This document shows positions 38,201 to 60,714 of a stretch of 64,000 nt of DNA, in pieces (positions within the stretch are counted from its first letter, which is position 1; each line of letters opens with the position of its first letter). The stretch comes from Ascidiella aspersa. Taxonomy: Eukaryota. Made by a program: the position numbers and the translations under genes. The notes below the pieces were generated by a model. It had not been told where the DNA came from. It made no database searches and saw only the letters and a program-made list of their open reading frames with translations. The stretch is taken from NCBI GenBank assembly GCA_963924565.1, contig OZ004610.1, positions 26,040,001 through 26,104,000 of the forward strand, written 5' to 3'.

Positions 38201-41200
38201 GGCATAAAAATTTTTAGGAATGACGTCACAAAGTAACATCATAAAATAAAGTCCAAAACAAATAACCTTGGTAAACCTAAGGTTATCGGTTCATGTAGGA
38301 AAAACGTGAAAAAGCCTGGTGAACATTTTGTAAAAATACTACAAAAACTATAAAAATACTAAATAAACCAGTTCGATAGAAAGAGAAACATATATATTTT
38401 TTTTATTATTGTTTTAAAAAAACGAGATTTTGATTTACCTCCATGCTGTCTATAAATCCTGGATTTCTTCCCCACATTACATTCACTTCTGAGTTACTTT
38501 CCACGGTGGCTCGAAGGCGACTGACTGCGTGTAACAGAGTTTTGGCATATTTTTAGAACTTAATTTTTTAACTTTGAGTGCAACATGTACGGACCTGGAA
38601 TGTAGCTTAAAAATAAGCTTAAATCCAAATGGGTCAAGTTGATCGACTTCATCTTAACAGGCCGTTCCAATACGCAGACGTTAACTGATAAAAACAGTGC
38701 GTTTCGAAAACGTTTTTTCTTTCAGATGATGTCCATTTACTTGAGTTATTTGGCTTTGGTTCTATTTTCTAGCTTGTTTTGTTATAGGTCTACATGTGCA
38801 TTTATTGACTAATTAGTCTTAATATTTTATATACATTTGTGACGAGTTAGACAAAATTAGGTTTACGTATAGTAGATACTTTTTTAACTTAGTGTTTGAA
38901 AGATCGATATGTGTTTAAAACTATTTTAAAAACCAAACCTATAAAATTATTTGCGATATGTTATAAAGTCATCCTTAAATACACATATTTACAATCTAAT
39001 TGTCAAAAGCAGATAGCAATTTTAACTCTATAACATGAAATACCTGCAGGAACGAGATTTTCTGTATCGCGGGGTACCCACGCTTGATCCGGGCTCTAAA
39101 GAATAAGTTAAACAATAAAAGTTGATAAAAAAATCAATATGCGGCTCGAGTCCATATTAACATTTTATTTTTGGCTATGCTGAATCTAAATGGTCCCGAA
39201 AAATCAACCAACTAGCTAATCTTTGCATACTATAAGTTTCCTTTTCATGTTAAAGGGGAAAAATAGAAAAAAATACATAAAAAAACGAAAAAAAGAATAA
39301 AAAAAGTTAAACAGGTACCATCTTCTGTATTTAGCATTATAAGTCCGACTTTAATTGTTAGGATAACCTTCTTCATATTGCTTCCACAAATTTAACAACA
39401 TTTAGACATATTTTGCTTATAACCATCTCACTAAACTTCAATATGTGAACTACTGCAGTCGGCGACCCGGGAGTTTCGAACAGGGTTTTTAAACTTTTTT
39501 TACCGGGGACCGGTAATTTTTTTTGCTTCGCCCGGACCACGGTAGGCAAGGAATTTACAAAAATGACGTTATAAACTGACGTCACAATCAAATAGACTTT
39601 AGATATATATCGACGATTTAAGTCAACGGGGAGTCTAAATACATTCAGTGCTAAAACGTTTTGGTTTTAATTAAAATCTTTTCTCAAAAAATTAATTCAT
39701 TTTTAAACATACACTAATATTTTAATATGTCCTTCATGGACCTCTTGAAATTAGTTGACGGACCCCAAAGGGGACTCCAGTTTATGAACACCTGGTTTGA
39801 AACAAGATATTAAAGATTATTAAAAACACAGTACTTACAATAGACGGGCCAGGTTGCGGATTGACGTCACCGGTTCCTCCACCTGGAGAAATCTTCCCAT
39901 CCCTGGTGAGTGAGACTTTTCTCAAGTCCTTGTACTCTTTTCTGCACGAATCTGGGTCGCGGTTATGTGCGAGGCTTGACTCTGAAGAAAAAAACAAACG
40001 AGTTGCCACGAATGCAAGCAAAAACTAACAGGTCTTATGTTCTCGATTGAAACCCGCCTTTTATACTGAACCACCTTTTTGTCTTAAAAACAAACGCATA
40101 AGGTTTTGTGATACGGTAGGCATAACATTCTCTAATCGACATTTCGCTGTTTACAGACGTTTAGTGGAGCGATAAAACAGAAAAACGTATCATTTATTAC
40201 ACCTAGAGTTTATCCGATATTACATTTTATAGAAATCACCATGAAAATCCGTGTAGGCTATTGTGTTCTAAAGCGTAAGCTTTGTTTCAACCGCCATTTT
40301 TTTAATTTAAGGCCTTTCATACTTGATTTTGCTATCAAACGCAATGTTAATTCCAATTTTTTAAGATTCAAGCCAAAATGCTAAAGGAGTAACTAAACAC
40401 TTCGCCATTTGGCCTAAAGCAAAACAATACCTTTGAATATTTCATGTAACAATATTATTATTGAATCAAAGTAATGGCAAAATTAGGAATTAAATCCGAC
40501 GGCGTCACTTTTTGCTTATATCGCGGATAGCTTGAAAAATAAAATTCGAAGAATCATCCCTAATATAAAAACTATAAGCCCCAATGCCTTTAGTACCTTG
40601 ATAAACGAAGGTGTAACGTTCGCTTTGCAAACAGGAACTTGCTGCGGCTCCGTTGACCACGTGGAAGTGTGCCATCATTCCTATGGCGCTTTTGTGGAGC
40701 TGCCAGCTTATCTGTAACAAAAAAATATGCCGCTTAAGAAACCAAAGTTCGTATTGACTTACCATTAGCACTCGTCGCCAATCAGGACCCGCCCGGGCGA
40801 AATTACACTCGCCCCCAAAAAATGTCGGCACGCCGTCTTCAAATGTCGATTCTATACCGACTGCCTTGCGTAGGACTTTTTACCATGTTAATGGCCTTGT
40901 TTAATCCGTTGTTTTTTTGGCGTTAAAATAATTTATCACAGGTAAAATTACGATTTTTTTTCTTTACAGAGTTTTGTTAGCATCACATCGCAGATCACGC
41001 TTTTTCCTAATTAATGGCAGATCACAATGTGTTTGCAACAACCATTTTTACTTGGGGCACTTGCCCAGTTTGTTGTCAATCAGAAAATCACCCGGCAAGT
41101 GCAAAAACTCAACCCTGGAACTGCTAATCTACAGGTCGTTGTTGGTCAACCTTGAGCTGTAGAAACGCCACCCGGTTCGGAACCACTGGTCTATACATCT

Positions 41201-44200
41201 GCAGCGTCCCAACGCTGTCGTTTTCCTTTCGCTTTCCCAATTACCGCCAATTTCCAGTTTACCAAAATATGTTGTCGATACCAGGCATCGTATACTAAAT
41301 GTTTCGGCACTTATTTATTTTCTCCCACGTTTGGGCTATACCTGTGTAGGATGCCTTTATCAGGGAAAAGCAACAACACCAAGCAAAGTAAAACGAAACA
41401 TACAAAAATGGGGAAAGAAAAAATCCAAAATACGCAGTGTTGCTGCATTTCTTGAGCATGGGTTTAGCCCAGGGGTGGGCAACCTACGGTCCGCGGGCCA
41501 AATTAGGCCAGCCAACAAATATCATCCAGCCCACCACCTTCTTTACAAAATGGATAATGGGCCAATTCTCATATATTTGGGCTATTTCAACTACGTAAAT
41601 GTAAAAATTGTTAAGCTTAAAGGCGTAATATCTACTGACAACAACAGCGGAAGTTTCGTCAACTCATTGTATCTAAATGCATCATATTCAGTTAAAATTT
41701 ATCACGGTCCGAGACCTATTTGTGTTTGATTTTGGCCAGCGAATAGCAAAAGGTTGCCCCCTCTGGATAGCCGGAACGTCGGAGCAAAAAAAACAACTAC
41801 CGGAAGAGCTTCTTTTTAGTAAAGTGTTCCAGCTTACCTGTTCGAAAACAACCACTCCGTTGTAGGGATCAGAGATCGCCTCAACGGTACAGACCTCCCA
41901 AAACTGGATTGAGTCTAGGAGGCACCCTGGCGGCAACCGCATGGTCAGGGTCCACTTGCCCTCCGCGTTCGGCTTGGTGCCCCCAAGCTCGACTTGGCCT
42001 TGACCCCCCGAGCCCCATTGCGACATCCAGCGGAGAGACGGGCTGTTTGCTGTCAAGTTAAAAATAAAAAATAAAAAAGTGTTTTGATAAAAAATGTAAA
42101 TATCTTTACTGTTTTACTGTGAAAAGCTTTGTTATATAGTGATTCGCAAAAGAGTTTGGTTTTTAATTTTGCATAAGACTTAAGTCTTTTTTGTAAGAAA
42201 AATACTATTATATCATTGATGGAATTATATGTACTAAGGCTTAAATACACCCTGACCATTATGGTTAACATTCTGTTTTACGATTATGTTGATTTTTTAA
42301 ATTAACGTTGTTCATTATTGCTATAATTGCATTGAAATTTGTTTGCATCCTTTCTAACATTTCACCCAACAGTCTAGAAATTCGTTCGAAATTCAAACAA
42401 CTTATATCGACGCCTACTGTTTGTTTTAAACTCAAATTGTTTTCTTACTGTGCTTTCAATTTAAAAAGAGTCCAATATATATTATGGTTATAGTTGAGGG
42501 TAATACGGCTAATGATGATATTAAAAGTTTTGAGAATATTTGTTTCAACAGGAAAACTTTCATTAAGATATTTAACAGAAAAATTAAATTTAATTCTTTT
42601 CATAACTTTATTACAACAGTAGAACAATATTTTTCGTGGTATTGCCGAAATAATTCAGGCACAATTATAAACAAATCACGGCAAATTTCAAACCAGTCAC
42701 ATACCTGTCGAGACTGGATTGGCGGCGGGTTGCACAAAAACCGGGACTTGAGTGGCAAGTGGCTGGTTGACAAGTGGCTGAACGGCGGGCGCCTGTGTTG
42801 CCAGTGGCACGTGAACCGCAGGTAGAGTGATCGGGTTTATTTCTGCAATGGAATGTCATCTTTCCTAATTTCTATCATACATCGAATTGCATAACTGTCC
42901 TGGAAAGTTTTTTGAACTATAGTGTATTCTATGAATAAAATGTTAATACGCACAGTCGCGCAGTGCATTTAATAAGTTGGCTGAACTATATATTTCATCT
43001 ATATGATAGTAGTTGTTAATTTATGGAAAAGTGCTCATAAAGGGCTTATTTGGCAATTTTTGGAACAACATTGACAATAATATGAGATTCTGTCATTTTT
43101 TCTGGAAAGGTAAAAGTAGTATCCAGTCGAGTTGTTCACATTCTGTATGTTTTTTAATTAAAAACTATACGAACTTTATAGTGTCATTTATTCACAAATT
43201 CCTTAAATGCTACAACTTTACACTTATAAAATGTGTAATTATAATCCATACACGTAGTAAGAATATCAAAGCCCATATATAATTAGATGTTTCTATAATT
43301 ATGTTATGAGCTTTGATATTCTTACTACGTCTAACTAAAAACTCCAACAATTAAGTAAAAAATTACAGATCTGTAGGCTTTATGGCAGTATTAAAAACTA
43401 CGACAAAAACAAACAAAATCAACACTAAAGGAACATACCAAATTGCTTAGTGCTTACCGTTTATACTGGGCTGGGTAAACACTGACGTAATTGGGATTCG
43501 TTCGGGGGGCACGATGGCCTGTCTGGTGGCCACCGGAATTAGGGGCTCGTCGAACCCGCTTCCGGAACCCTCAAGGGGGTGGGGTAACTGCTTGGGACAG
43601 TTTTCGGGGCTGGCCCACCTCAGAGAAGGGGTACCTGCATAGTACGGTATCTATTATGAGGTGTGCTGACTTAAAGTCATATTTCTGTGTGCAGTCAATC
43701 GGTGAAGCGCATTAATTACTCTATGTTTGGTTTTATAACAATTTTATGTTTTTGCCTTATTTAATTTATATACTTTTAATTTGTGGACGTCCGTAGAAAA
43801 CAAATAGTTCAGTTGAATGTCTACGTGTACGTACTATGTCGAACGACAACCCCGGCTATCCTAAGGTTACTCGTTTATGACGTCCCGTTATGACGTAACG
43901 TCGTGACGTCACCTTCGAAAATTTTAATGCGTTCCGGTAAGAAACTTATTCTACTCACATTCGTGGTATCTCTATAAGGCAAGGGTGATTAATAAACTCA
44001 GGTGCATGGACCCTTGGGGGTCCGTGAAAGAATTTCAGGGGTCCATGAAGCCTAATGGAAATATTAGTGTATATTTAGAAAGTAATCAATTTCTTAAAAG
44101 AGTTTAAGTAAAAATAATACGGTTTTGCACTAAATATAGACTTCATGACACTTTCACATTTTCGGACCGAAATCATCACATTTCTGAAGTCTATTATTTA

Positions 44201-47200
44201 TTATTATTCCGGCAATTTATGACGTCATCTTTGAGAATTGCTTGCTAACCGTGGTTGTCGCTTATCGAGAATAAATTTTAAGGTTATGCGGTAAAAAAAG
44301 TTTAAGAACCCCTGGTATAAGGAAATATAGAAACAGTGGTTCAGAAACGTTTTCATGGCAAGCGGTGCGTTGGAAAATTGACTTTATTTTTACCTTTTTC
44401 GATGACCACGAATCTGTAGGACTCCTCGCGGAAGCAGTTGCGCAGGAATCGCGCCTCGCTAAATTGGAAGCGGAGTCCAATGAAGTCCTTCTGCTCCTGC
44501 CATCCGATCTGCTGGAAGATGACCTGGCGGGAGTCGAGGCCCGACTCCGGGATGTTCAGGCACGCGTTCCACGTCTGTGAATAGCAGGAGGATAAGCACA
44601 ATACGAAAGCAGAGTTCGCTGTTGGAGGAGGTGTTAAGGAATAATTAAGGATGACGAAGGAGTATTGTGTGTGAAGGTATGAATACTAAGGAGAAGCTGA
44701 AACACTTTCGAATGTAAGTAGTCTCCCGCAGACAAATGTAAAAGAGGTAACACATTTTTTCGGCATTTTATACATGTTTGTTTTTGTACAGAAGCTGATG
44801 ATACCCAACCAAAAGGCGAAATATATATATCTGTAAAATTTTAAGAAACTGTTTCATGTTCTATTCCTGTTTTCATAAACAGTCTTAACATAGTACTAAA
44901 AGAAGCTAGGAGAGGAAATGATCTTTTAAATGTTTTTATTCAATCGACTAAGAAAATACAAAGAAAACTGTTCTACAGATCATTTTGTATATAAGATGGT
45001 ATACCGTAACCTAAATGTTAGCGCAGGCAAAGTGTGGTCACTGCTGGTTAAAACGAGTAGAGTCCCATTTAAAGGTTTCTCTTTAACAGTGTATATTTTC
45101 TACAGGATTCTACACGAAAACAAATCGAAAATGAAGCTACTATAGATATGGAAATGAAGCTACTATAGATATGGAAATGAAGCTATTATAGATTTTCAAC
45201 GTATTCTATCTAATGCAATTTCGGGAGTCTTACATTATGTTAACCAAATTAGTCCAGGTACGCGAATACATTAATATTTTGCGGCCGTAAACTTTTTTCG
45301 GCGGCCAACTTAAAAAAAATTGCGGATTTTTCCAGCACCAGTTTGGCGCCTTACCCTGTTGCAACAAATATATATATAATTTGTTTTGGTATTTTATGAG
45401 TTTCTTAACGCGGCTTTTACTTTATTCGGCAATTGTATTTACTTACGTCCAGTTGGGTAAGTGGGCAGTCGTGCGGAAAGGTCATTCTCAGTTGCCAATC
45501 GCCGGTGGGTTGAAGGCTGGGTAACTTCAGCTGGATCTCGGCCCCATTACCCCAGGTGTTTACCCACTTCACTTGAGGAATCATTCCTTGGCAAAAACAG
45601 TAAAACTTGGGTCTTTTCGTCCGGTTTAAGTTGTAACTAAACTCTTACAACAGCAAAACGATGGTTTTTAATGTTCTTGATGCGAACGGTGATCAACATG
45701 GAGCAAAAATACAAAACAAAATGGCAAACTAATTTTCGTCGTATGTATAAACGAAATTAAGTTAAATTCACTTAAAACTGAAGACAAAAGTGCCTTCCTA
45801 ACGAAAGGGAAGCATATGGGTGGTTGTAATAAGGGAATAAGGCACAGACAAAAGAATTGACGCACTACGACTCCAGTGCTAGAGTTATTGCTTTGTCGTT
45901 GGCGTGTTGCTTTGGGGTAAATTAAAACTAATTAGAGACCAAATTAGGCAAATTATCTTATCGCAGCTCCAGGTTGTTTAAAATCCGTTTGTGCTACGCG
46001 ACGGCAGTCAACAAACAAAAAATATGCTCCACGGATTTTAAGGCTTTACCGAAAGAATGAAAAAGTTTTCTACAAACATATAAATAAGGTGCCCAACCGC
46101 CCGGGAATCAAATTGGATTGCACGTATATTGTAGTTATACAGATAAACATTGTCTCGTTTTTGTTAGCGCATGAAGTTTTTATTCGTTTATAAATTTTCC
46201 GATAAGTATATGGAGTAATGATTGAACAGGCTACTTATTGAGTAAAGGTTTTTTAATGGAAAAGGGGTGGTTTTCGGACGGTTCTTAAAAACAATCTACT
46301 AAAACATGGCAATTCGTTTTTGCTGCCCATTTCGCCAAAATAATAGTGAAAAAATTAAAATTAAGTCCAAAAATCAAACGTTTTTAATTGTGCAACTCAC
46401 GATGCTCGCAGTTGATTCCGAACACGTTGTCGGGGCAGGTGCAGAGATAGTTGAATCCCTCTACGCTCGAGCACTGGCCGTTGTTCTGGCAGGGATGGGA
46501 CGAACAAGCTAGGATGTAACAAAAACAACAAAGTTCTTGAATAGTGTTTCACAGCCTGTGGAATTTTTATTGTAATTTCACTTAGCAACCAAGTAAAGGG
46601 TCGTGGACCGAAAATTTCGCATTTATTTCTGTTTAAAAGATACATACAAACACCTGCGTGTAAACTGTACAGCAAAAGTGATATAGCCGAAGTTTCAGTT
46701 TGAAACTTAATGTTTTTAGACATTCAGGCTTTATAATCAGAAAAAAATGTAGTTTAGTGTTTGTTCTTTTTGTTCTTTTCGTGACGGTAACTAATTGTAT
46801 ATGTTGAGCTTGTTTTATAAAGTTTTATGCTAACATATATATCAACAGTCAATGAAAGATAAATACACATACGTGCACAACAACTGCGAACTAGCCCTTT
46901 TTAAGTCGTTTTTTGATCAACGATAACGACTTACGTATATTGTTCACCGAAAGCGACAAACCAAATTAGTCGATCAATGATGACAAGGCAGGCTAAACGA
47001 CTCGGTTAGTGTGTCGAAGGCTTACGGTGAACATACACCAACAGCTTATACTGCGAGGTTGAGGAAGATATTTATATCAGAGAGCAATTAAAGGTATCCC
47101 TTGACAGGGCATATCTACTCTAATTGTATTAAACTTTGTTTAAAATAACAACTTTCATTTTAACGTGACGTTAATCGACCGAGATACCGATCAACCCCCC

Positions 47201-50200
47201 CAAAAACGGACCTGTTTTCTGTTTGACTTTCGAAACAAGCTTACCGTCCAATTTCGACACCACAGCTCCGGCGAAAACTTGGTTGGCGATTTCTTGTGGA
47301 TCCAGGGCGACAACGGATCCACCGGTTGCAATGCTTTCCAGAAAGAGAAGCCCTGCCGCCACGGATTGAAAGGCGGAGTTGTGAAGGATGTGAGGTTGAT
47401 TACCGACGAAGTTTTTCCTGCAAAGCAATTTCGATTTATTAATCTTTATGATGTCCCATTTGGGCGGTTGTTGTCCGTTTGCCCCAACGCTAAGTGCCAC
47501 TAAAAATCATTAAAGCAAACTTTTTCAGTGTTATTTGTATATTTATTTTATTTTAGTGATAGGCCTAATTTGTCAAATTTCCGATCCCTAGCAACCTTGT
47601 ATACATTAACTATTTGTTACATGGCTATAAAACTGATAACTTTACATTTGAAGCGCTATTGATACTTAATTAGCCTATGTCAACTAAATAATTAACGTAA
47701 CGTTTTCCCTATTTTCATTATGTTGTTTGTAGCCTATTGGTTTCTTAACTGGTCGATTCCCAATATTTTGCTCTACAACAAGACACCGAACTTTCAGGCT
47801 GAATAAAACTACCTTGAATTCAACAATTTCCCCACACTAAACTCATAATACAGGGAATTATGCTATAAAAGCATCATATAGCTATGGCTTTGGTGTTCAG
47901 TTTAACTGATCAAAACGCCCTCACTTTTTGAAATATTAAACCAAACTTGCAGTTAAAATTGCTTTCCGAATCACGAAATATACAGTTAAAAGAAAAAATG
48001 TGATTCCAAGAAAGGTGATTTCTACACTCTTCTTGTACAACATAGAAATTCAAAAGGAAAGCACACCTGGAATCGACCAAGTTTCCACTGGCGTCTGGTC
48101 CACCCACAAGTGCCCCGGTAAGTTCGTAAGTGTTGCTTCCAGGTGATCCAAAGAAACCCCAGCCGCATTGCAGGGGAGGCGAGGGGCAAGAGCTGTTGGA
48201 AATAAAGTGTTGTTTTACAGTCAACCTCTCATATTTGCATATTTAATGTCAAATCTTCGCTCTTAAGGGCTAGTAATCTTTATACTGTTTTCGGACAAAA
48301 TGTAAATCGGCCGTTTTAAGATACTTGAGAGACAATTTTTACGCAATTTTGACATAACCAGTCTCTTTATTCCTGGAATAAACTTTTATTTAGTTTTTTA
48401 GGTTCTCATTATTAGTCGCCCGTTTATTTCCAAGAGGAGATGCTATCTAATATTTTTTAGTAGACATGCAGTTGCTTGCGAACGTGTTACTTTAAACTTT
48501 TAATTCAATCGGTTTCGAAAAGAATATAATCCGCCTTAATAAATAAGAATAAATCCGACACATAAAAACGTTAGGTACCCGGTGGAAAAGATTTAAAAAA
48601 ATATTTATAAACAAGGCTAGCTATTTTTATTCGTTCATTTCAATTTAGAAGTCTTTTGATTTTTGTCTATCATAGTTATTCTGTCAAGGCCTGTTAATTT
48701 CACTTCTGACTTTATCTTTGCACACAGTTTATGTTTTATTGCCGAACGAACTTCATTGTAAGTAAATTGTTGAGTTAAAATTTATTTTTGAAAAACTCAA
48801 AGTCGGAACGGTTAAAGTTAGATTTAGGTTGCATATTTTAGCGCGACATCGAACGACTTATTTTAAACGTCCCGTTATTGTAAACTTTGTACGTCATGTC
48901 TAAAAATTGTCATGCGTTTCAGTAGGAACATTTTTCATCTTTCCAGTAAAACAATTATTCTACTCTTACCCCTGATCGACAGCCTTCACTGCTTATTTAA
49001 AACCCAAAATAAGACTGACATTACGTTTATTTGCGCTACTTTTTTGACCAGGCCCTCTATAGAACATCTTTCGTTGGTCATGGCGCCCTAGTAAAAAAAA
49101 CAGTTTCCCACGTATGCCTCGTACCTTCATAAAGAACAACACACATAAGGCTCCCTACCTGTCTCTGTCGTGCAGCCGCTTCGGGTAGTCCTTGCCGTAA
49201 CCGACCATGTAGCTAACACCTGTTCCCTTGCCTAGAGCTTCGGCAACTTGCTGCTTGGCCAGCTCCTGGTAAGCGGAAGTCTGTGCCGGGTCCAGGGTCT
49301 GCTCAGACGCCAGGGCGCAGAGGAAAGCAGTGTTTGCTGAAGGAAGCAATGGGCCGTGGTTTAAATCAGTGATTCACAAACTGTGTGCCGCGGCACAGTA
49401 GAGTGCCTCAAGTGATTGTTAAGTGTGCCGCAAAACTTTTTGTAAGTTTTAAAGTTTTTGTATGGCCAATAGGCATGCAATTACACGCAAATATTTTAGA
49501 CTTTAATCGCACTATCCTTACAAATTAGTAATATTGAGAGATTTACATATAGTTTGTGTGTTAAGTGCGATTGTAAAATTACTGTTAAAAGTGTGCCGCT
49601 AAATATGTAAGATTTATTGTGTCGTAAGCTAAAAAAGTTCAATTGCTTTGGTTTTGCAGCTACGGGTTAAGACAATATTACGACTATATCAGGGTTGCCA
49701 TATACTTTCACGAAGAACAATCAGAGACGTTAAAATACTTTTGAAATAAAAAATTATAGCTTTTCAAAGATTTAAAATTGGATCACTCGACATGTTGCTG
49801 TAAATTCGCAAAAAAAAATACATTTGAAGACAAGATAGCACAATTGCAATGATCAACAGACCATAAAATAACAAATAGTTTTACAAATTGATTTTCCAAC
49901 GACAAATGTTTTTTTTTCGTTTGATTCGGAGCGTTTACAAAACCTCGTATATGGAATTTGATAACTGCTTTATGACTTCTTACTTCACATATTTGTTCTA
50001 TCTCACGCAATTTAACAAAATATAAAAACGGCGTGTTACCAACGAAGATCATTTTGTTTTTGAGCTTCTTCATAGAGAGAAGGCCGTCCGGTGATTTGGG
50101 AGCAGAACGTGAACTCCATTGGTTGCAGAATTCCGCCACAGGGGTCATGTAGAGGTCATACTCGCCAGTGATTTCCGAGAGCAGCAACTATAAAAAAGTC

Positions 50201-53200
50201 TTCAATATGTAAGTTTGCTCTAAATTTATTATTTAACAATGACCAGATGAAATATACGATCCAACAAAATGCTTGTACTGTTAAGCTGGGAAAGAGCAAT
50301 GAATGTGTGTTGTAAAAAACGGTTTTATTCTTTAGGGCTATGTTATACGTAAGTTACACTAAGATGAAATAATTTCTGTGTAATGCGACTTTCTTTTCGA
50401 TTCCAGTCCGAATTTTACACAATCCTTAGGTAGTTTTTAAACTTGTTTTTACTTTCATTTTATTTTATGTTTTTTAACAGGTATTACCAAAGAGATAACG
50501 CCTTAGCTAATCGACGTTAACGAAATGCTAAATAATACTGTTATAAACAAGTTATTTTAAACAAATTCAAGTCCAAGTCAGGTGGTCATTTGCGAAATAG
50601 CTTAAGTCCCAGTCAAGTCATTTGCAAAATACCATTAGTCCCAGTCTAATATAGTCATTAGTTACGCATGTCAATTAGAAAAAAAAACAGCATTGGAATC
50701 AAAAATTAATATTAAACGTATTAAAATGGTAAACACTTTTCATTCTGACCAATATTTCGCACAGCAAACGCAAAAAAACGAAAAAACAGCAAGTTAACAA
50801 TTATTTTACTTAATTTAACTAAAATTTATTAATTAAAACACCATAACATACGATAAGTTATTCGCTGTAAATGATTATACGAAGTACTTAAGTCAAGTTA
50901 AGTCATATTACCAAAAAGAATTACCAAGTCAAGTCATCTGAAAAGAGTGACTTAAGTGCATTTAACTCATTAACTTTAAGAATTCTCAAAAGTCATTAAA
51001 ACAATGCTAAATATCGTATTGCATTTGCTTATGCGTTTCATTTGAACTTATCGTTTCATTGAAAATGCTATCCACCAAACTATATAAACCTGGATGGCCA
51101 AAATCTTGTTATCGTAGGTAAGGCCGGTGTCGGTGTTCTTCTTGTCCAAGCTGAACTCTTTGTACTTGGCGATCGCTTCGTCCAGGTAGGCCTGCTTATA
51201 GGTGGCCTTGTGGAGCCAGATAGCGGCCCACACCAGTTCGTCACCGTAATCCGTAGACCTGACAAAACAGTTACCTCTATACTTTAATTGCGAATGGCGA
51301 CAAAAAAACACCCGAGAAAATAAGATGAAAATACATCGAACAAGAATTTCGACGGCCAAGCGACATAATTGTGGCTCCTTATCCAATAATATTAGTATGT
51401 GGCCAAAAACGAATATGTTTCTCTAATTTAATAATTTTGTACTTTAAGGTATTTTTATTTGGTGTAATTTTTAATTTTTTTTAATTTATTTTTGACACTG
51501 GCAGTTAGGCAGGGGACTTTAAAGTATAACCACGTTTTAAATTTTATAATGATATTAACCATAAATGTAACTACAAAAAGTCTCCACAAAACTTTGTATA
51601 ACTTATTTAATTTTTTTATAAATATTGACGAGGTTGCTTGCTTTTGGATACAGGCCTAAAGAGAAAAATGCATTGTCTAGGTGGGTTTGGGCGGGTCTGC
51701 AGGGGCTCAACTAAACATTGTTGTAAACCGTTATCCTTGTGCAAACTATGTTCGCACCAAATGCTGCTCAAAGCTTCAATTTTTTAATTATTAAAAAAAG
51801 TATTTTATGTCAAACCCTGCCCTCTTTACTCACGGGTAAAATCCTGCTGCACCCGGGATCGAAAACCCGTCGTATCTTCCCCGGTTGAAGTCAGCGAACT
51901 GGTAAAGCTGCTCGGCGTGACGAATCAGCTCGGCCGAATACTCGGCAGCTGCAAAAAAACTTCAGTTCGTCTGGGTATTTAGCTGCAGCAAGTACAAACT
52001 ACGGCCCGCCAAGCAATATAATCCGGGCGGTGCATTTTCAATTAAACTATTTTAGACAAAAATTAACCCTAACATTATTTTATTGATTTCCGAATATTTC
52101 ATTGAATACATTACTCTTGAAAAGCACATTACCAGCTTGTCAAAACAAGGATATTTAAAAATTATTTTAAAATGAATCCCACACTTTTTCAAGATCAGTT
52201 TTTTGACACGGCCCGCCAAGACATTTTCTGTTTCTTGGGCGGCCCGCTGTCGAAAATAATTGCCCACCCCTGGTATAGAAAAATCACAAAACGTACAAGT
52301 GGGCTCGCTCAGCCTATAGATTTTTCCTAAAACGCCGCAGCATGCATTTCTTATCCAGTAGTTCACTTTTCGCTTGGCGAAATCGTTTTTCTTTATCGCT
52401 ATAAAGGGGACTCAAATAATTTTATAAATATGAAAATAAAAAAATACAATCAAACAATATTACTTTTACTTCCAAATCAGTATTCACACAACCACTTACT
52501 ATACATACGATGTAAAATGATTTAGTATCATCAAAGCTGATTGAGAAGGACTTGCTCTGGATAATTTAATTGACAGGCCAATTTTGATAGATGTTGCATG
52601 TTCTCTTAAAACTACCATATACAACCACCACTGTTTGAGTCGAGAAGACGACAGGGTAAGTTCGAAATTGGTTTTGGGCCCAGGCGACATTTCTATACCA
52701 GATTGCCAAATTGAAAAGAGTTTCAAAATCGATTCGCAAACAATAAATGAAAAAAATAAAATATAGCAAATTCTCTTATTCTTTAAAGGTCGGTGGAATA
52801 TATTTTTGCAAGGAAGCTTATAAATTTGTAAGTTTACGTGGTAAATCTAAAAAATCACTGGCCTTTGTCTGAAAAAAATAAAACATATTTTATTCCACTT
52901 ACAGAAGAAAGCTCTAGGCCAGTGTTTTTTAACCTTTTATGGGTTGCCCCCTCCCTTCCAAGGGTCCGCAACGCTTAGTGACCCCCTGTTTACGTTTTAG
53001 AAAAACACCACTTCTCAAAGAGAGCCTTTAAAGTTACAATCAAACTAAAAAAATGTTTGACTGGATAAATAATGAAAATTATATATGTTTGCCCACAGAT
53101 TGATTTCATCGGCGTCGAGAAACCCTGGTCCATATAGGGTCGTAAAATTGTCACCCACGTTTTAAAGTTAAAGAGATCTCAATGAACGTTTTTTGGCAAT

Positions 53201-56200
53201 GACGTAAGTTGCAAATTTCGACAAAGTCGCTTCAAATTGTGTTTACCCGGTTTAAACGTTTATCACGCAAATTAGCTAATTGATTGGCCTGGAAGTATAC
53301 TGGCTTGTAATGTCATATTGATTGGGTGATGTTACAGCGGCATAATAACACAATTAGGCCCAATTAAGGTAGCTTTAGATGTGCATTAGTGTTATCACCT
53401 GGGCGTATTACCTTAATCTGAAAAACACACTGGGCTTGACTAAGTAGAAAAATGGTGAAAAAACAAATGACGTAATGCAACAAAAAAATGCTTAACGGCA
53501 GGCTCGTATCCATATACGCATTTTGGCATGTAATGTGGCCTACATATTGAAGTATATTGCCTTTAAATTAAACCCAGGTACTTCCACATTCGCCGTCAAG
53601 TTAACCCAAGATAAACTTAAAAGAAAACAACGGTATCTTTAACCTTTATACACTTTGGGGTTTATGGCATTAAACAAGAGTTTTGCAAAGCAGATGCTTT
53701 GTCAGAAATCAGAAAAACACCACATTTGCACGTTTAAATTGAAATTCTGTTAAGTTTTAGGTTGGAGAATGGAGAGGTGTTATACTTTCAATACAAAAGC
53801 TACATATTATTTGGATGTTATTTATTCGCGCAAACCGTAAAAACGACTTTATATGATTTATTTTTTTTATTTTTGCGGGTGAGATGAGATGATATTTTTG
53901 CATTTACATAGTAAAAACAAAATACAGTTTAGGGGGGCATGTGGCCACTACCTGAATACGCCCCAGGGTTAAACATTTCTAACCTTGCACATAGATGTCA
54001 AACAAATTAAAATTAAGCGTACTTAGAAAGCAAACTAACCAACTGTGGAAAAAAGCAGGCCTGCCGCGGCCAGAGCTGCAGAGGTCTCGGCGGCCAGGTC
54101 CGACCCCGGTTCGTTGGTGGTCAGTTTGTACGCTGGTCTCCTCCAGTTTATGCTACCGCCGCTCTCCCAGTGCGAGTGGTCGATAGTTGGGTCGCCCACC
54201 TTCGAGGAAAAAAATCGTTGAAAAGGAAAAGAGTCGAAATTGAAAACGATTATGTGGACAAGGGTAGTGGTGAAAGCAAGCTGGAACGACGTTTCGGTAA
54301 AAAATTAAGTGTTCTTTATTACCAGGTTGTGTCGCTTTTTACCAAGCCATCAAGCCATCTTTTTGAAATTATTAAACTAATATTTCAGTTGCATATTTGA
54401 GATTAAACGGTAACCTCAGGTTTCCTAAAGTTATTTGTTTAAAACAGTGGTTCTCGAACTTTAAAAAAATAATTACGCAACGGCCCCTCAGCAACTTTTT
54501 AAATTGCTCACGGTCCCTCAAAAATTTACACAAAATAACATTTGTTTTCAATGGTATAAATGGGACGGGTAAACTTGCTTCTTTGCTTTCAGCTCGGCTA
54601 TGTTAACCTCTAACGAATCACTTTATTTGAGTAAAGCAATCACGAACAGTTTTAAAACCGTGACTGACCGTACAGCCCACAGTGTCATCGCAGCAAGCTG
54701 TGAAAACACAATTCTCATTAGCACAATGCAACACTATGACGTCACAATGGACAAATTTAACTCTAAGCGTACAATAACTTTAATGAACAACTATATTCAG
54801 CTTTGTTTTGAAAAGTTAGTTGCCTGAAAATTTTATTGCACAAAAGCGTCGTGTTGATTTTTTGTTCGCTGCTTTGCGGTCGCCGAAAATTGTCTCGCGG
54901 ACTCCAAAAGGACCGCGGACCCCAGTTTGAGAACCACTGGTTTAAAACGCCCCTTGATGCCGACAATAATTTTTTTAACGTTCGGGTAAGAAAATTCTTC
55001 TTCTTTAGACCCTCGTCACAATAAATCAGTGGTTTTCAACAGGGGTGCCGCGACAAGCTGTGTATACTCAATTCTAAAGCTTAGGGATGTCCTAAAATAT
55101 TTCAGAATCCTATAAAGAATTTGTCCCTCTTTTAAATTTTTCTTATCTTTTATAGAGAATTTGTATTTTATGTGACTTTCGTAAGTTAAGTCAAACGACT
55201 TTTCGTCGACAGAATGAGTCCAATAATTTTTCTTATTAATGTTTCCTATTGAAAAAAAACCCCAAATATTCAGGTTGCGAATCTGTCAAATAAATTTGCC
55301 TCGTTTTATGACTTTTTTACTATTACTTTTGCTGAATATGCGTATATCCAAAAAAGGTGTAAATATTTAGTATAGCCTATCGGATCTTTTCAACGTTTTG
55401 TGCGGATCTTCTAATGTAGTCTTGAAACAATAAACTTTATACAGCATTTTCATGAGGAAAAATCAAGCATAGAACGAGACTCTCAAATGCTAATCTTTGT
55501 AAGCGTTTGAGGATATCAGTAAGCGACGGAAAGCCCCAATTCGATGCTATTGTAAGACCTAAAGTCTAAAACAGGGCGCGGCAACCTACGGCCCGCGGGC
55601 CGGATTTGCCCCGCCAATGTAATTCATTCGGTCCGCCGCCTCTTTGTTGAACTAGATACGAGTCCATTTCAAATACTTTTTGACTATTTTAACTACGTTA
55701 AGTGCTAAAATTTTTCCCGCTTCGCGCGAATCATCTTTCTACGTCCGGATAGTTTACGTTTTGATGAGGTCTTTTGAACTAGATCAGCGCTTCGTTACCG
55801 TTAATGGTAAACGCATTCAAAAATATTGGACATCAATTTTTTAATTTTGTTTTTTCGGCAATGTTGTAGGTTATATTTACACAAATAAATCACCATAAAA
55901 ATAAAAGCGTGTCCAATATGTTTGGCTGTGGTGGATCATGGCAGAAATCATTTGAACACCCCTGGCCTACTAGGTTTTTAGCCCAGTTGTATTATACTTT
56001 TGTCCTCTTTTGTGCTAAATTGCCCTCTCTTTGGGCGATGAAAACAGGGTAGGCCTGATGTGAATAATAAAAGTTACCATAGAAGTTTACATCATCTAAG
56101 TCAGGTTAAGCTCAACGTACTTTTGCCTAATCATCACATTGCGTATATACAGGCCTAAACACACGTTAAGTAACTCCAAATGTTGGAGAACAACTCACCA

Positions 56201-59200
56201 TGCCGTAGAGCACATCATCTTGCGGGTGCGCCTTCATAAAGTAGTCCGTCCCCCATTTGATTGCCTTGTACAGGTTAATGGTCTCACCCGCCTGCTGGTA
56301 GCCCCCTGCGAATGCAAGTCCACCCCAGGCCAGCTGGGTGACCGCGAAAGCCATTGGAAAACCGAACTTGACGTAATCTCCACCTGATAAGTAATTAATT
56401 ACCGTTAAAAGCTTGTTTATTGTAAAATGTCAAAACTAGTAATGGATTGCCTATTCTTAGAACTGTTTCGAAGTATAGGAGCGTTTTCTGTCTGGGTTAA
56501 AAGCTTGTTTCTTTTAAAATGTGAAACTTGGTATTCATTAACTCTTTTTGAGGACTGGTTTAGGCTACGGAGCATTTTGCCTGGAGTCTTAAAATGTTTC
56601 AAATTTCCGCGACGGAGTGTTTTTATTTTGCATTAGGTGCCGACGTTTTCCGTTAATGCACAACGCATCGAGTTAAAACCAAACTTTCTGGTAAATTCAC
56701 AAATAAAACATGAATAACTCTCGGAATTTTTTATTTAACGATATGGGAAACCGTTTATATCGTTCATTTTCGTTCAACAATATCGTGCAGTGAAGTTGTT
56801 TAATGATAATTAACATATGGAGGTTTTAAGTGAGTATAGTTTTATTAATCATTAATTTAATTTTTATTTATTAAATTCGCCAGAAACTGTTTTATTGTTG
56901 CTAGACCGGGAAATGAATGAAGTGCTGTATGCTTTCAGCAACTGCCGTGCCGCGTAAGCGTAACGTAAATTTATCTTGGAAGAGAAAAAGTACGAACAAC
57001 GCGTAAGAAAAGAACTACAAAGAAGTTTATTGTTACAGCGATGGCGGTTGGTGATATAATACCTCTCTTTCAAAGTTCTTAGACGTGCGGCGCCATGGCT
57101 AAGCGGTTACAGCGCCTGTCTAGTAAACAGGAGATCCTGGGTTCGAATCCCAGTGGTGCCTTGCTTTTTCGACTTTTAAGAAAATTAGCTTGAAATTCTT
57201 CTTGTTACGTCTTGCAAACTTTTTTGACGATATTCTAAATTCCTACCACATGTTGTCCGGGGTGTTGAATTGCTAACATTTATACACAATGAGTCCAATA
57301 ACTTATTGTGGCTGTTGCAATTAAACGTAATGCTAAATATTTCGGCAAATATATTTAGAAAAAAATGAAGTACAGACACCCTTTGAAACGGCTAACTAAG
57401 TGGGTAATGGCTGGGGTTGAAACTTGTGTCGGGGTTGGAATTATTTAGGGAGTTAGTGGTGAAGGCAGGGTTGGGATTGGGTAAGAGGTTTGTTAAATCT
57501 TGTTTTAGTCGTTTAGTTTCTGTCTTTTACCGATTTAAACCTCATTTCGACTATAAGTATTACACCTATTTTGGTCTTTTTGGGGAATCGCGTTTTATTC
57601 TTACGATGGTGTCATTTCCCAGTGTTGTTAAAACAAGTTATTTTAAAATTACTTAAGTCGAAGTTAAGTCATTTGTAAAATAACCTGAGTCCAAGTCAAG
57701 ATATTTTGAATAAATTCAAGTCAAAGCATTATTATTAAAGCAGATCAAGTTTAAGGCCTTGTAATTCAAAATTTAATGTTGAACTTTAAATTTGGTAAAC
57801 TCGTCGAATAGGGGCAATAACTCAACTAAAAACAACAAAAACCCAACATACAACAAGTGAATTGTTTTATGTTAAGATAAGAACACCTGAAAGTGCTAAA
57901 TAAAGCTCCAATTATGGAAACTCAGACCGATAACAACTGCGTCCAACCTTTTATAAGTGATGATTGAAATTACTTTTCAGTCACATTAACTGAAGATGAT
58001 ACAAGCTCGTATCGAAAGGTCTTAATAATCAAGGTGATGTCTGTCTACTCGACATTTTTGGCTTTGCAATTCATTATCAAGTACGGTAACACATTTTTAT
58101 ATAAAAAAAAAGCTTAATGAAACTACCATATTTCAACCCACGTAATTTGTTCAAAAGACTTAAGTCAAGTCAAGTCATTTAAAAACGGAGCGGTGAAAAA
58201 GTGCACTTGTGAAAATCATTGACTTAAGTCATTACAACACTGTAAAATCATTGACTTTAGTTATTACAACACTGTTATTTTGGGTCTTTTTGCTGGAGTT
58301 CCTTTAAACCTCCCCAGGGATCCCAGTTCGAGACCTATGTTTAATAAGGTCACCTACCGATATAGTAGCCCCCGGTCAAATCGACTCCTTCTGCGCCTCC
58401 ATCGTACAAAGCCGAGTCCATTTTCCAGCTGATTCGATTGTCAGCTGGCATCTTGCCAGAACGCTGGGCCTCGAAGAAAAGCAAAGACAGCTTGACTACT
58501 TTTTTGTAGTCGGTGACGAATTCTGAAACGAATTGCGCCGAAGTTTAATCCTTGAGTCGACAGCTATACTCTTGAAAACATTTATATAGCCACAGTGCGC
58601 TATAATAACAAGTTGTGTCCTATTGAGTTGCACATGCCAATTTTCTAATGGGCGATGGGGTATTACAATTTTTGAATCATTTTCAAATAAATATTACTAT
58701 AGAGTGCAAACACTTTTGGATGTAAGGACAAATAAAATGTGATAAAAAAGATTCTTGATTTCGTATCAGATGATGTTAAGACTGTTTAAAAAACGTAGCA
58801 GGTGCATTTTTAATAAAGATTTATGTTTTGTTTTATACCTGTTTTTATAAACAGTTCTATCATCATATATTGTACGATATTTTTTTTAGCTAGAATTTAA
58901 TTCTTAAAGCTACAGTGTAGTGAGTGAAGTTTAGCTTTCAACTGTTTGTGGTACGTTGAGTCTTGAGCCCTGTATTCCAGCAATTTATGTAGCCTGCCTA
59001 ACTAAAATCATTGTGTTGACATAGCCTACCCATGTTTAAAAAAATTGCCGGATAAACAATTTTACAATTAGGTATATTGTGGCGGCAATCGATAAGGAAG
59101 AAAACGCAAATAAAAACAGCACCAACCGGGTTCGTTGTCGTTCGATCCGGATTGCTTGGGACCGAAGTTCTCGCCGTGCACTTGACCTTGAAAGGTCACG

Positions 59201-60714
59201 GTGAGCGAAGGCGGTCCGTTCTGGGCGTAGCCGAGCACGTGGAAGTCAAACGTCGGGCCGTGTATGTTGCCGTTCCACGGTTGGTTGGCGATGACGTAAT
59301 AGGTGAAGTCGGGCGCTACGTCAGAGACGCGACCCTTCCACATCTGAGAGGGAAAAGGTTGGTGGTTGTTTGATTATATACTTTTACGATATACGGCTTT
59401 TCCAATATCTATTTTTTAGCTCAGATAAAAATTGTTTTGCTGGGGGGACCATCAGGGTGGTCTGCATGAATTTTTAGAGCTGATAAACACGAATGGTATA
59501 AAACAAGTAGATATAAAATGTGAAACTGAAGTATAGTATAAATACTTTCAGTGCAAAAACGTTAATTTTATTTTAATTCTTATGTTTTGAAAAAATCATA
59601 ACCTTTTAAATAATTTACTAATGTTTCAATTGGGCCTTCATGGACCCTAAAACTGTTAACGTACCCCTAAGGGATCCATAGACCCCAGCCTAAGATTTCA
59701 GAAAATCATTCAAAAGATAGTACTTACCCATTCATAAATAATAGTGTACGGTTTGTTTTATGTAAGCAATGGTCACGTTTATCCCCCCTCTTGAATTGTA
59801 AACTTATATCTCACCTGAAAGCCTTTCACCGGCTTGTTGAACGTCACCGTCATTTTCCATCCGCCAGAGGTCGGGCTTCGAACCGGCACCTTTATGTCTC
59901 CCTCGAAACCACCGTTTGAAAATGTTCCTATACAAAAGAGGCAGTTAGCAAGTTTTCCTGACCTCAAATGGATTTAAACGCCATATTAGCCTTTTCAAAG
60001 TACCGTATATGACCTATATATACTATAGGCGTTATTCAAACGGTCGTTTTCTTAACTGCTTTATTTGTAAGAAAATATGTAGAAACTAAGAACGACTGGA
60101 AGGTCCCTAATATAGGGCGACAGTCCCGGGATGGCTGAGGTCGTGAGTTCGAACCTCACCGCCAGATATTTATTTCTATAGCCTTGCAATCCTGGTTAGG
60201 CCAACTGGTTTCGTTAAGGGTCTTTTTAAAACTGAGCATAAATTTTATTTTATACGATTAGTATCAAGTTGTTTGTCAATGCCCAAAAATCTCAAAATAA
60301 CTTTCAAATTTTATATTACTATTATTTTGGTAATTTTTGTTCGAAGTTTACAAATAACTTATTCTTCTAATATTAATTCGTAAATTGTTCGTGTCAAAGG
60401 ACAACTCAGCTCTATGACCAAAAGCAAAAGGCCTCATGTCTACCCCCAAATATTTATGTTTGCAATTTTGTTGTGCAAACGAAAATATTTCTTAGAAATT
60501 CCCGGTGGTTGTCAATCGTAAAACATTATTCTATTTTTTTCTAAATAATTGTAGCCTAGCAAATAGATTACTTACTTGAAACCGTCCATAGACTTGAAAA
60601 CGGGCCCGCGAATGCATTGACAGAGCTTGACGACAACGATAAAAATAAAAACACGTGTACGATTTTTTTCAACGAAAAAGCACCAACAATTTTTCGCCCT
60701 ATCGGCGTATGCAT
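12791..60714 (-). CDS. Giant secreted multidomain protein: SP-CBM2-GH9(pseudo-enzyme)-EGF-CBM2like-linker-CBM2like-2xFN3-21xEGF; 45 coding exons, about 2241 aa (short isoform)
   Basis: All 45 exons have AG/GT boundaries with compatible phases, summing to 6726 nt with no internal stop. An in-frame TAA lies just upstream of ATG 60714; the stop TGA is at 12791-12793. There is no stop between the GH9 C-terminus (exon 47245-47417, phase 1) and the EGF exon (46401-46508, phase 1). Single-transcript continuity is inferred. Confidence 0.8.
19493..24662 (-). CDS. Eight near-identical linker+EGF exons (24513-24662, 23801-23944, 23097-23264, 22318-22485, 21717-21884, 21062-21229, 20433-20594, 19493-19642)
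   Basis: Consensus ([13 protein letters not shown])[40 protein letters not shown]; all exons are phase 1-1 and open. Confidence 0.9.
20433..23944. repeat. Tandem exon+intron duplication array, six units with periods of 601-779 bp
   Basis: Introns as well as exons are alignable, e.g. GAATTTAAATTGAC and AAACCACGCTGTATAC in the left units, and GGGCAATGTGCTA..TTCTTATCTGTT in the right units. Confidence 0.9.
25182..25254 (+). tRNA. tRNA-Val-CAC: tRNA-Val (anticodon CAC)
   Basis: 73-nt metazoan tRNA-Val sequence GTTTTCGTAGTGTAGTGGTTATCACG..CTCACAC..GGTTCGAGCCCGGGCGGAAACA. One G-U pair in the acceptor stem; TTTT follows. Confidence 0.92.
25927..25999 (+). tRNA. tRNA-Val-AAC: tRNA-Val (anticodon AAC)
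   Basis: GTTTCCGTAGTGTAGTGG..CTAACAC..GGAAACA, 73 nt, followed by an oligo-T terminator. Confidence 0.95.
26676..27261. mobile_element. hAT-type MITE with GGTTC-rich subterminal repeats
   Basis: Perfect 15-bp TIR CAGGGAGTCGAACCG; near-identical 8-bp flanks CTAAAAGG / CTAAAAAG. Confidence 0.85.
27706..27778 (+). tRNA. tRNA-Val-AAC: tRNA-Val (anticodon AAC)
   Basis: Identical to the 25927 copy; oligo-T downstream. Confidence 0.95.
28713..28785 (+). tRNA. tRNA-Val-AAC: tRNA-Val (anticodon AAC)
   Basis: Identical to the 25927 copy; oligo-T downstream. Confidence 0.95.
29366..34596 (-). CDS. Eight one-per-exon EGF/cbEGF repeats (34486-34596, 33984-34106, 33397-33513, 32764-32886, 31865-31987, 30693-30815, 30135-30317, 29366-29494)
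   Basis: Seven exons carry the DEC..C.(N/D)....(F/Y/H).C.C pattern; 34486-34596 is a non-Ca type. All exons are phase 1-1. Confidence 0.9.
35232..38524 (-). CDS. Two fibronectin type III domains (exons 38439-38524, 37222-37465, 36273-36388, 35232-35388)
   Basis: First domain: [50 protein letters not shown]. Second: [42 protein letters not shown]. Each has the classic FN3 phase 1-0-1 exon pair. Confidence 0.85.
36152..36266. repeat. CCGATA/TATCGG-rich dispersed repeat (MITE remnant; also near 13045-13145, 35790-35840, 7767-7785, 885-965)
   Basis: Recurrent GTATCGGATCGG / CCGATACC motifs. Confidence 0.55.
39044..42049 (-). CDS. Third, divergent CBM2-like module plus linker (exons 41838-42049, 40597-40711, 39839-39981, 39044-39095)
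   Basis: [46 protein letters not shown]|ISWQ aligns closely with the second module; phases 1-0-1-0-1. Confidence 0.7.
41470..41765. mobile_element. hAT-type MITE (related copies near 51985-52272 and 55572-55964)
   Basis: Left end CAGGGGTGGGCAACCTACGGTCCGCGGGCC, right end AGGTTGCCCCCTCTG; TSD degraded. Confidence 0.6.
42705..43634 (-). CDS. Pro/Val/Thr/Gln-rich linker exons (43458-43634, 42705-42842)
   Basis: Two phase 1-1 exons with clean splice sites: [34 protein letters not shown].. and [46 protein letters not shown]. Confidence 0.72.
43252..43330. repeat. Fold-back inverted repeat
   Basis: Perfect 21-bp arms ACGTAGTAAGAATATCAAAGC (43252-43272) / GCTTTGATATTCTTACTACGT (43310-43330). Confidence 0.85.
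44394..45586 (-). CDS. Second, divergent CBM2-like module (exons 45447-45586, 44394-44574)
   Basis: [36 protein letters not shown]|[14 protein letters not shown]; CBM2-like Trp spacing; phases 1-0-1. Confidence 0.7.
45129..45193. repeat. 23-bp minisatellite, about 2.8 copies
   Basis: AAATGAAGCTACTATAGATATGG repeated. Confidence 0.85.
46401..46508 (-). CDS. EGF-like domain exon immediately after GH9
   Basis: [36 protein letters not shown]; six Cys; phase 1-1 exon. Confidence 0.9.
47245..58522 (-). CDS. Glycoside hydrolase family 9 domain, predicted catalytically inactive; exons 58358-58522, 56199-56383, 54040-54199, 51834-51948, 51090-51258, 50040-50187, 49159-49336, 48067-48192, 47245-47417
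   Basis: GH9 hallmarks appear in the correct order: [112 protein letters not shown]. Confidence 0.92.
54445..54939. mobile_element. hAT-type MITE with 8-bp TSD
   Basis: TIR CAGTGGTTCTC / GAGAACCACTG; perfect TSD GTTTAAAA on both sides. Confidence 0.85.
57089..57161 (+). tRNA. tRNA-Thr-AGT: tRNA-Thr (anticodon AGT)
   Basis: GGCGCCATGGCTAAGCGGTTACAGCGCCTGTCTAGTAAACAGGAGATCCTGGGTTCGAATCCCAGTGGTGCCT has an intact acceptor stem, anticodon arm CCTGT-CTAGTAA-ACAGG and T arm, followed by TTTTT. Confidence 0.93.
57620..58274. mobile_element. MITE family rich in GACTT/AAGTC repeats (other copies near 6290-6360, 14750-15090, 24012-24461, 34860-35135, 50540-50995)
   Basis: TIR CAGTGTTGT..ACAACACTG, with the right end tandemly duplicated. 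Internal AAGTCAAGTCATTT motifs are shared among the dispersed copies. Confidence 0.65.
59127..59927 (-). CDS. N-terminal CBM2 carbohydrate-binding module (exons 59815-59927, 59127-59343)
   Basis: [37 protein letters not shown]|[27 protein letters not shown] matches the CBM2 pattern (GF.g.i.v...GW.v.v.F...W...WNG). Confidence 0.8.
60115..60165 (+). mobile_element. tRNA-derived SINE-like head fragment (second copy about 29170-29222, minus strand)
   Basis: B-box-like GTGAGTTCGAACCTCAC. About 50 nt of clear similarity between the two dispersed copies; no cloverleaf. Confidence 0.5.
60576..60714 (-). CDS. Coding exon 1: start codon and probable signal peptide
   Basis: [46 protein letters not shown] has a basic N-region, a hydrophobic core and a VNA cleavage-like site. 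The GTAAGT donor is phase 1 and matches the next exon. Confidence 0.7.

Follow-up and report, generated by a model that had tools for sequence, protein, structure and literature searches.

The locus described here raises the question of what two cysteine-containing modules are doing behind a GH9 domain in a tunicate gene. The gene lies on the minus strand of a 64,000-nucleotide stretch of the Ascidiella aspersa genome (contig OZ004610.1, positions 26,040,001 to 26,104,000), which was analysed as a whole and is called the window. The modules, M1 and M2, are a divergent four-cysteine subfamily of the carbohydrate-binding module (CBM) family CBM2. With a probability of roughly 0.55, these modules, likely disulfide-stapled, grip crystalline glycan fibres and so anchor a GH9-EGF-vWA protein in the coat.

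Exon model, module homology and orthologues

Splicing was derived from the genomic sequence and from comparison with orthologues. On this basis, the domain order is CBM2, GH9, EGF, the modules, two FN3, about 30 EGF and vWA. From the N-terminal CBM2 through the last exon of M2, a model of 19 exons (59927 to 39839) was obtained, which has GT-AG boundaries at every exon and stays open over all of its 987 codons. An orthologue from a second species, the metagenome locus L016, has its GH9-to-M2 exons in the same order and phases, and is 62% identical in M1 and 56% identical in M2. M1 (45586-43597) and M2 (42049-39944) are encoded in three exons each, joined in frame:

45447 to 45586, minus strand: M1 exon a (M1a), with the first binding-type Trp (codon 45554-45552), Gly at +3, Glu at +5, a core Trp and the first Cys; its 3' boundary is a phase-0 intron ahead of x-Trp, and the orthologous exon is L016:9618-9757
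44394 to 44574, minus strand: M1 exon b (M1b), with the second Trp (44571-44569), the third Trp (44502-44500) and Cys 2 and 3; 63% identical to its L016 counterpart
43458 to 43634, minus strand: M1 exon c (M1c), with the fourth Cys (43599-43597), then a linker rich in Pro, Ser and Gly
42705 to 42842, minus strand: linker exon between M1 and M2, rich in Pro, Ala, Val and Gln; several orthologues have a third, Trp-less module there
41838 to 42049, minus strand: M2 exon a (M2a), with the first Trp (42017-42015), the second Trp (41900-41898) and two Cys, ending at a phase-0 intron after FEQ; the orthologous exon is L016:12790-13001
40597 to 40711, minus strand: M2 exon b (M2b), with the third Trp (40705-40703) and the third Cys
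39839 to 39981, minus strand: M2 exon c (M2c), with the fourth Cys (39946-39944) and a linker into FN3

Over 123 aligned residues, M1 and M2 are identical at 39, and their alignment puts three Trp and four Cys in corresponding columns. Their local alignment score is 169 versus a mean of 27 for shuffled sequences, and none of 1000 shuffles scored as high. Two Cys-containing modules at these coordinates had been proposed in a first-pass annotation of the window, together with the introns GFQ/MW in M1, QLD/TW in the N-terminal CBM2 and FEQ/ISW in M2 (the slash marks the intron); the spliced exons are open, and the exon model reproduces both the modules and the introns, all three of which are of phase 0. 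The motif given there for the modules is right in its Trp and Cys columns and calls for two minor corrections: the first two Trp are three residues apart and not two, and its element WG.G is not invariant, with L016 differing at +1 and the Gly at +3 being kept. When the animal's genome was searched with M2a and with M1b, no module copies beyond M1 and M2 were found, the counts being lower bounds.

Further orthologues were collected with a profile built from M2a and M1a. Among its 21 representative matches, 12 have the module; the remaining nine (P0011, P0016, P0018, P0020-P0025) are unrelated repeat proteins matched over short stretches and were dropped as chance. A second search gave seven matches, four of which were new. 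No match was returned by a word-based homologue search with M2a or by a first metagenome scan with M1b. P0048 is a full-length orthologue of 3685 residues, in which a hydrophobic leader is followed by a CBM2-like domain, GH9, EGF, three modules, two FN3, up to 36 EGF and vWA. We presume that the orthologue records are from tunicates.

Fold and membership in CBM2

An AlphaFold model was computed for M1 of the orthologue P0006 from 17 rows of modules, none of which is a known CBM2 (mean predicted local distance difference test (pLDDT) 79, predicted template modelling score 0.75). In Foldseek, ranks 1-14 were all CBM2 or CBM2-containing chitinases (probability 0.96-1.00, E 1e-3 to 2e-2). In the wide VIA search, ranks 1-5 were all CBM2 (Z 6.2-7.7, model residues 1-115), namely 2XBD (Z 7.7, root-mean-square deviation (rmsd) 2.7, 85 residues aligned), 6BT9 (Z 7.2), 3NDY (Z 7.2, rmsd 2.7, 92 aligned), 6F7E (Z 6.8) and 5DHE (Z 6.2). 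2CWR was aligned to the model with Z 7.2 and rmsd 3.1 over 91 residues.

At the sequence level, a hidden Markov model (HMM) of the module was compared with the PDB, and 3NDY, 1EXG and 6QFS were the best three of its four matches (E 0.018-0.055); the alignment pairs module Trp with W17, W38 and W54 of 1EXG. A profile-profile comparison with ten bacterial CBM2s in hhalign gave E 4.8e-5 (probability 68%, 50 columns). PF00553 matched three of the 12 alignment members weakly. The top four ESM Atlas matches of M2a were CBM_2 clusters (0.85-0.89), which is a lead only.

Several results weigh against this assignment. No structural match attains E 0.001 or Z 8, and Z values of 7-8 can mean a common arrangement. 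The modelled chain is that of an orthologue, not of the window's own protein, and fold searches with a model of P0017 returned only EGF and no CBM2. The P0017 model was the first one computed (14 rows); it had a pLDDT of 50 and was set aside as low in confidence. CBM2 matches of the sequence are confined to the N-terminal half, the full P0017 module scores just 0.80 in ESM Atlas, and the best PF00553 match (17.8 bits, E 0.0044) stays below the Pfam cut-off of 24 bits. A Pfam scan of eight CBM or module exons of the window gave no CBM_2 match. Since the fold matches fall short of E 0.001 and Z 8, they carry weight through their consistent ranking and through its agreement with the sequence matches.

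With this weighting, M1 and M2 very probably have the CBM2 fold, as judged from the predicted model and as the first-pass annotation had proposed. Its proposal of a separate variant subfamily is upheld by a tree of 39 rows, in which a 98/98 branch separates the 20 modules from all other rows; the stem is long, and the tree comes with a warning of long-branch attraction.

Binding residues, cysteines and ligand

Binding residues were counted in 15 M1 and M2 modules, and cysteines in 20 modules and three N-terminal CBM2s. The retention of three Trp, claimed in the first-pass annotation for the two modules of the window, extends to 13 of the 15; in each of the remaining two, Tyr or Phe takes the place of one Trp. 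Per site, Trp is present in 14/15 (first), 15/15 (second) and 14/15 (third), and Gly is at +3 from the first Trp in 14/15. The equivalent of the core W38 is Trp in only ten of these modules. We take W17, W54 and W72 of 1EXG to be the binding-position Trp of CBM2a, and Gly instead of Arg three residues after the first Trp to be the CBM2a criterion (title of 1E5B: R262G). Going by the Gly at +3, the three Trp would be the surface ones and coplanar.

Because the sequence matches cover the N-terminal half only, the third Trp was assigned by multiple alignment and secondary-structure position. MAFFT places it in the W72 column, and it follows the matching strand in the P0006 M1 model. Its assignment is the weakest of the three, and spacing tells against it: the second-to-third Trp spacing is 23 versus 18 in 1EXG, and the next loop is shorter.

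Four Cys are present in 20/20 modules and in none of the three N-terminal CBM2s. A terminal disulfide between the first and last strands is typical of CBM2a, although not universal. The modules do not have this terminal pair, and their four Cys sit elsewhere. The invariance of the four Cys suggests that they form two disulfides. M1 and M2 are likely to bind polysaccharide.

Members of CBM2 bind via three surface Trp and take cellulose, xylan or chitin, and in the CBM2 of a Pyrococcus chitinase acidic residues near the first Trp block or restrict cellulose binding (PMC5328894, in the portion consulted). At +5 of M1, Glu was found in three of eight sequences (window, L016, P0035), Gln in P0006, P0017, P0034 and P0048, and Ile in P0019. 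In M2, this position is Gln and never Glu, and +7, the second acidic site, is never acidic in M1 or M2. By analogy, the acidic residue by the first Trp of M1 may favour chitin, if it maps to the published sites as we infer.

GH9 domain and cellulose-related genes

The catalytic residues of GH9 are the DAGD motif and the acid Glu. Three bacterial GH9s were used as reference, all of which have both. The GH9 domain of the window is as follows:

47245 to 58522, minus strand: GH9 domain in nine exons, with Ile in place of the first Asp of DAGD and Gln at the predicted position of the catalytic-acid Glu

DAGD thus reads IGGD in the window and spans an intron. The first Asp is Ile or Val in all three proteins checked (window, P0048, P0019), and the second Asp is kept in all of them. 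The window, L016 and P0019 all have Gln at the acid position, with an identical motif in the window and L016. The GH9 domain of the window is therefore predicted to be inactive, probably so, which favours a binding role. This does not hold for every lineage: the acid Glu is kept in five orthologues (P0006, P0033, P0034, P0035, P0048), a point against a purely structural protein, which may thus be an enzyme in some lineages.

The genome contains at least 13 GH9 loci (L003-L015, L038-L049), and L038, L040 and L041 have two N-terminal CBM2-like domains. A PF00553 search of the genome gave no match and missed even these multi-CBM2 paralogues, because the domain is split by exons. Two GH6 loci were found, as in tunicates, and there is a weak match to the chitin-synthase family. 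In tunicates, CesA bears a GH6 domain and a separate Gh6 gene exists (PMC10986139, as far as the part seen goes).

Origin of the modules

M1 and the gene's own N-terminal CBM2 have in common a phase-0 intron that lies one residue ahead of the second Trp, which had been read in the first-pass annotation as support for internal duplication. Among 12 upstream stretches examined, however, the same intron was found in the CBM2 exons of five other GH9 paralogues (both splice sides in L038, L040, L041 and L046, the acceptor in L043); L044 has a matching donor. It is a family-wide trait and hence does not single out the N-terminal CBM2 of this gene as donor; the duplication argument was rejected as non-specific. 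What the common intron supports is a CBM2 ancestry of M1. When modules and their own N-terminal CBM2s were joined in the tree, the p-value of the approximately unbiased test was 0.375, so that the tree neither rejects nor supports this grouping.

Five orthologues have a middle module between M1 and M2 (about 338-478 in P0006, 868-1004 in P0048 and 872-1003 in P0019). It retains the four Cys, and its three binding Trp are all gone. In the window and L016 it is absent, and a low-complexity linker exon is in its place. The most likely origin of all three modules is a single ancestor with four Cys that was duplicated in tandem.

Proposed role and alternatives

Each module is likely a disulfide-stapled CBM2 beta-sandwich that would present a flat platform of three Trp. 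These platforms could bind crystalline beta-1,4-glycan fibres, i.e. cellulose and possibly chitin. With the faces of M1 and M2 on a flexible linker, and with the N-terminal CBM2 and the disarmed GH9 cleft nearby, attachment would be avid and multivalent. From this point of attachment a long EGF rod would extend, and its vWA end would bind other matrix proteins. The outcome would be spacing or cross-linking of fibres, not digestion, and a very large secreted protein would likely be anchored in the fibrous extracellular coat of tunicates. Such a structural role, in anchoring or cross-linking, is somewhat more likely than not.

With fold and platform unchanged, M1 or both modules could instead bind chiefly chitin, and the protein would then link chitin and cellulose as a hybrid in a mucus net or gut envelope and not in the tunic. 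The ligand range of CBM2, the restriction of cellulose binding by acidic sites in the Pyrococcus domain (PMC5328894, same portion) and the Glu at +5 of M1 are in line with this, as are the chitinase CBM2s tied among the top fold matches (2CWR, 6BT9, 5DHD, 5DHE), the chitin intermingled with cellulose in Ciona gut membranes (PMC6109156, in the part available) and the weak chitin-synthase match. We consider it unlikely, given that +5 of M1 is Gln in four orthologues and Ile in P0019, that +7 is never acidic, and that the host catalytic domain belongs to a cellulase family.

Alternatively, the modules might be targeting CBMs of the usual kind, without a role in cross-linking, and belong to a cellulase that is tethered to membrane or matrix and trims or loosens fibrils. 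The kept second Asp, the acid Glu of five orthologues and the multi-CBM2 GH9 paralogues would fit such an enzyme, and in Oikopleura the GH9 genes have expanded and are expressed in the cells that make the house (bioRxiv 10.64898/2026.03.31.715263, in the sections seen). It is made rather improbable by the Gln at the acid position in the same motif of window and L016, by the loss of the first Asp in 3/3, and by the approximately 30 EGF repeats and vWA end, which are traits of matrix proteins. A slim prospect is that the CBM2 fold was repurposed for protein interaction or spacing, its Trp being structural or protein-binding. The middle module, with four Cys and without the three Trp, indicates that the fold was kept without the platform at least once, and the C-terminal half is too diverged for CBM2 matching by sequence; yet in M1 and M2 the three Trp sites are more conserved than the equivalent of the core W38, as would fit a shared ligand.

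Anchoring through fibre-gripping CBM2 modules is thus the reading we retain. Its boldest form is speculative: a chitin-biased M1 and a cellulose-biased M2 might be the fibre grip of an ancient tunicate matrix protein made from a disarmed cellulase, the animal counterpart of plant COBRA or of bacterial fibril organisers, and the first cellulose-fibril cross-linker or spacer identified in tunics and larvacean houses.

Remaining features of the gene and the window

The other parts of the gene are:

59127 to 59927, minus strand: N-terminal CBM2-like domain, two exons found, without Cys
46401 to 46508, minus strand: lone EGF exon between GH9 and M1; an EGF is likewise placed in P0006, P0017, P0019 and P0048
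35224 to 37466 (approximate), minus strand: two FN3 domains after M2; two FN3 are also present in P0006 and P0048
8977 to 34600, minus strand: long EGF array and probable first vWA exon

The exon that carries the start codon, the signal peptide and probably the first Trp of the N-terminal CBM2 was not found. In the N-terminal CBM2 (window 59927-59815, P0048 50-75, P0019 12-40), the orthologues have an insertion directly after the first Trp, and one or two of the other binding Trp are replaced, so that this domain may have degenerated further than M1 and M2.

The EGF array contains at least 25 complete motifs under a strict pattern, further ones being split by introns. Eight EGF exons at 19470-24700 (minus strand) are near-identical, each with a preceding Thr/Ala/Pro spacer, suggesting recent exon amplification. 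The vWA-like exons extend out of the window at its start. Opposite in strand to the gene, a methyltransferase gene (4428-6975, plus strand) appears to be nested in an intron of the vWA region, because L051, on the far side of the window start, has further weak vWA exons. Introns of the gene also contain, in antisense orientation, four tRNA-Val genes and one tRNA-Thr gene (25182-28785 and 57089-57161, plus strand).

In two read runs, coverage extends over introns, as it does for DNA. One run differs from exon M2a at 10 letters, giving four residue changes and none at Trp, Cys or Gly, which are too few to be weighed.

Novelty and significance

CBM2-GH9 fusions in animals are already known (PMC5977491, from the part consulted). 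In the open-access literature (subscription papers being outside the scope), no description was found of a CBM2 clade with four Cys that follows GH9 in a giant EGF-vWA protein. Neither the module nor the protein is described in the accessible part of PMC3390340 or in the portion seen of the Oikopleura preprint's main text, the GH9 supplement of which may list it; the part of PMC4853606 consulted adds nothing on the module. The four-Cys CBM2 variant is real and conserved, and its host is an apparently undescribed tunicate matrix protein.

The gene is a conserved, single-copy candidate for the gripping of fibrils, with specific residues to mutate. To our knowledge, tunicates are the sole animals that make cellulose, and we know of few proteins that grip or arrange their fibrils, the published candidates being lectin, fibrillin-like or GH6 proteins. 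CBM2-derived domains like these escape Pfam, so that CBM inventories of animals are undercounted. As small modules with two predicted disulfides, M1 and M2 could serve as stable tags for nanocellulose or chitin.

Comparison with known systems

Among the closest known systems are the CBM2a domains of Cellulomonas fimi Cex/Xyn10A (1EXG, 6QFS) and Clostridium cellulovorans EngD (3NDY), with which the modules have in common the predicted beta-sandwich, Trp at the W17, W38 and W54 positions and the Gly at +3; the third binding Trp is matched tentatively, by multiple alignment. The modules are only 18-19% identical to them and have 4-5 extra residues between the second and third Trp, a shorter loop thereafter, an extra helix and a C-terminal tail. 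Their four Cys are internal, whereas nine of the ten bacterial CBM2 rows have a terminal pair (two Cys each).

The chitin-binding CBM2s of archaeal and Bacillus chitinases (2CWR, 5DHD, 5DHE, 6BT9) are tied top fold matches and have an acidic residue at +5 like some M1. The modules differ in having one acidic site only, in 3/8 M1, and in a GH9-EGF-vWA host instead of GH18. The xylan-binding CBM2b of C. fimi Xyn11A (1XBD/2XBD, 1E5B R262G, 1HEH) gave top-ranked fold matches, plausibly through the shorter loop. CBM2b presumably has neither Gly at +3 nor a third Trp; the modules have Gly and not Arg at this position, and a third Trp.

N-terminal CBM2s of animal and tunicate GH9 cellulases (this gene; L038, L040, L041, L043, L044, L046, L049) have the phase-0 intron of M1 in five paralogues and in this gene. 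They differ from the modules in having no four-Cys pattern, in their position ahead of GH9 and in the tree, where the 98/98 branch with its long stem lies between the two groups. Among tunicate matrix proteins, oikosins such as the fibrillin-like oik19 are also large and EGF-rich and have been proposed to stabilise the cellulose scaffold. They have chitin-binding, C-lectin, vWA or vWD domains, and no GH9 or CBM2 is described for them in the part of the source consulted (PMC3390340).

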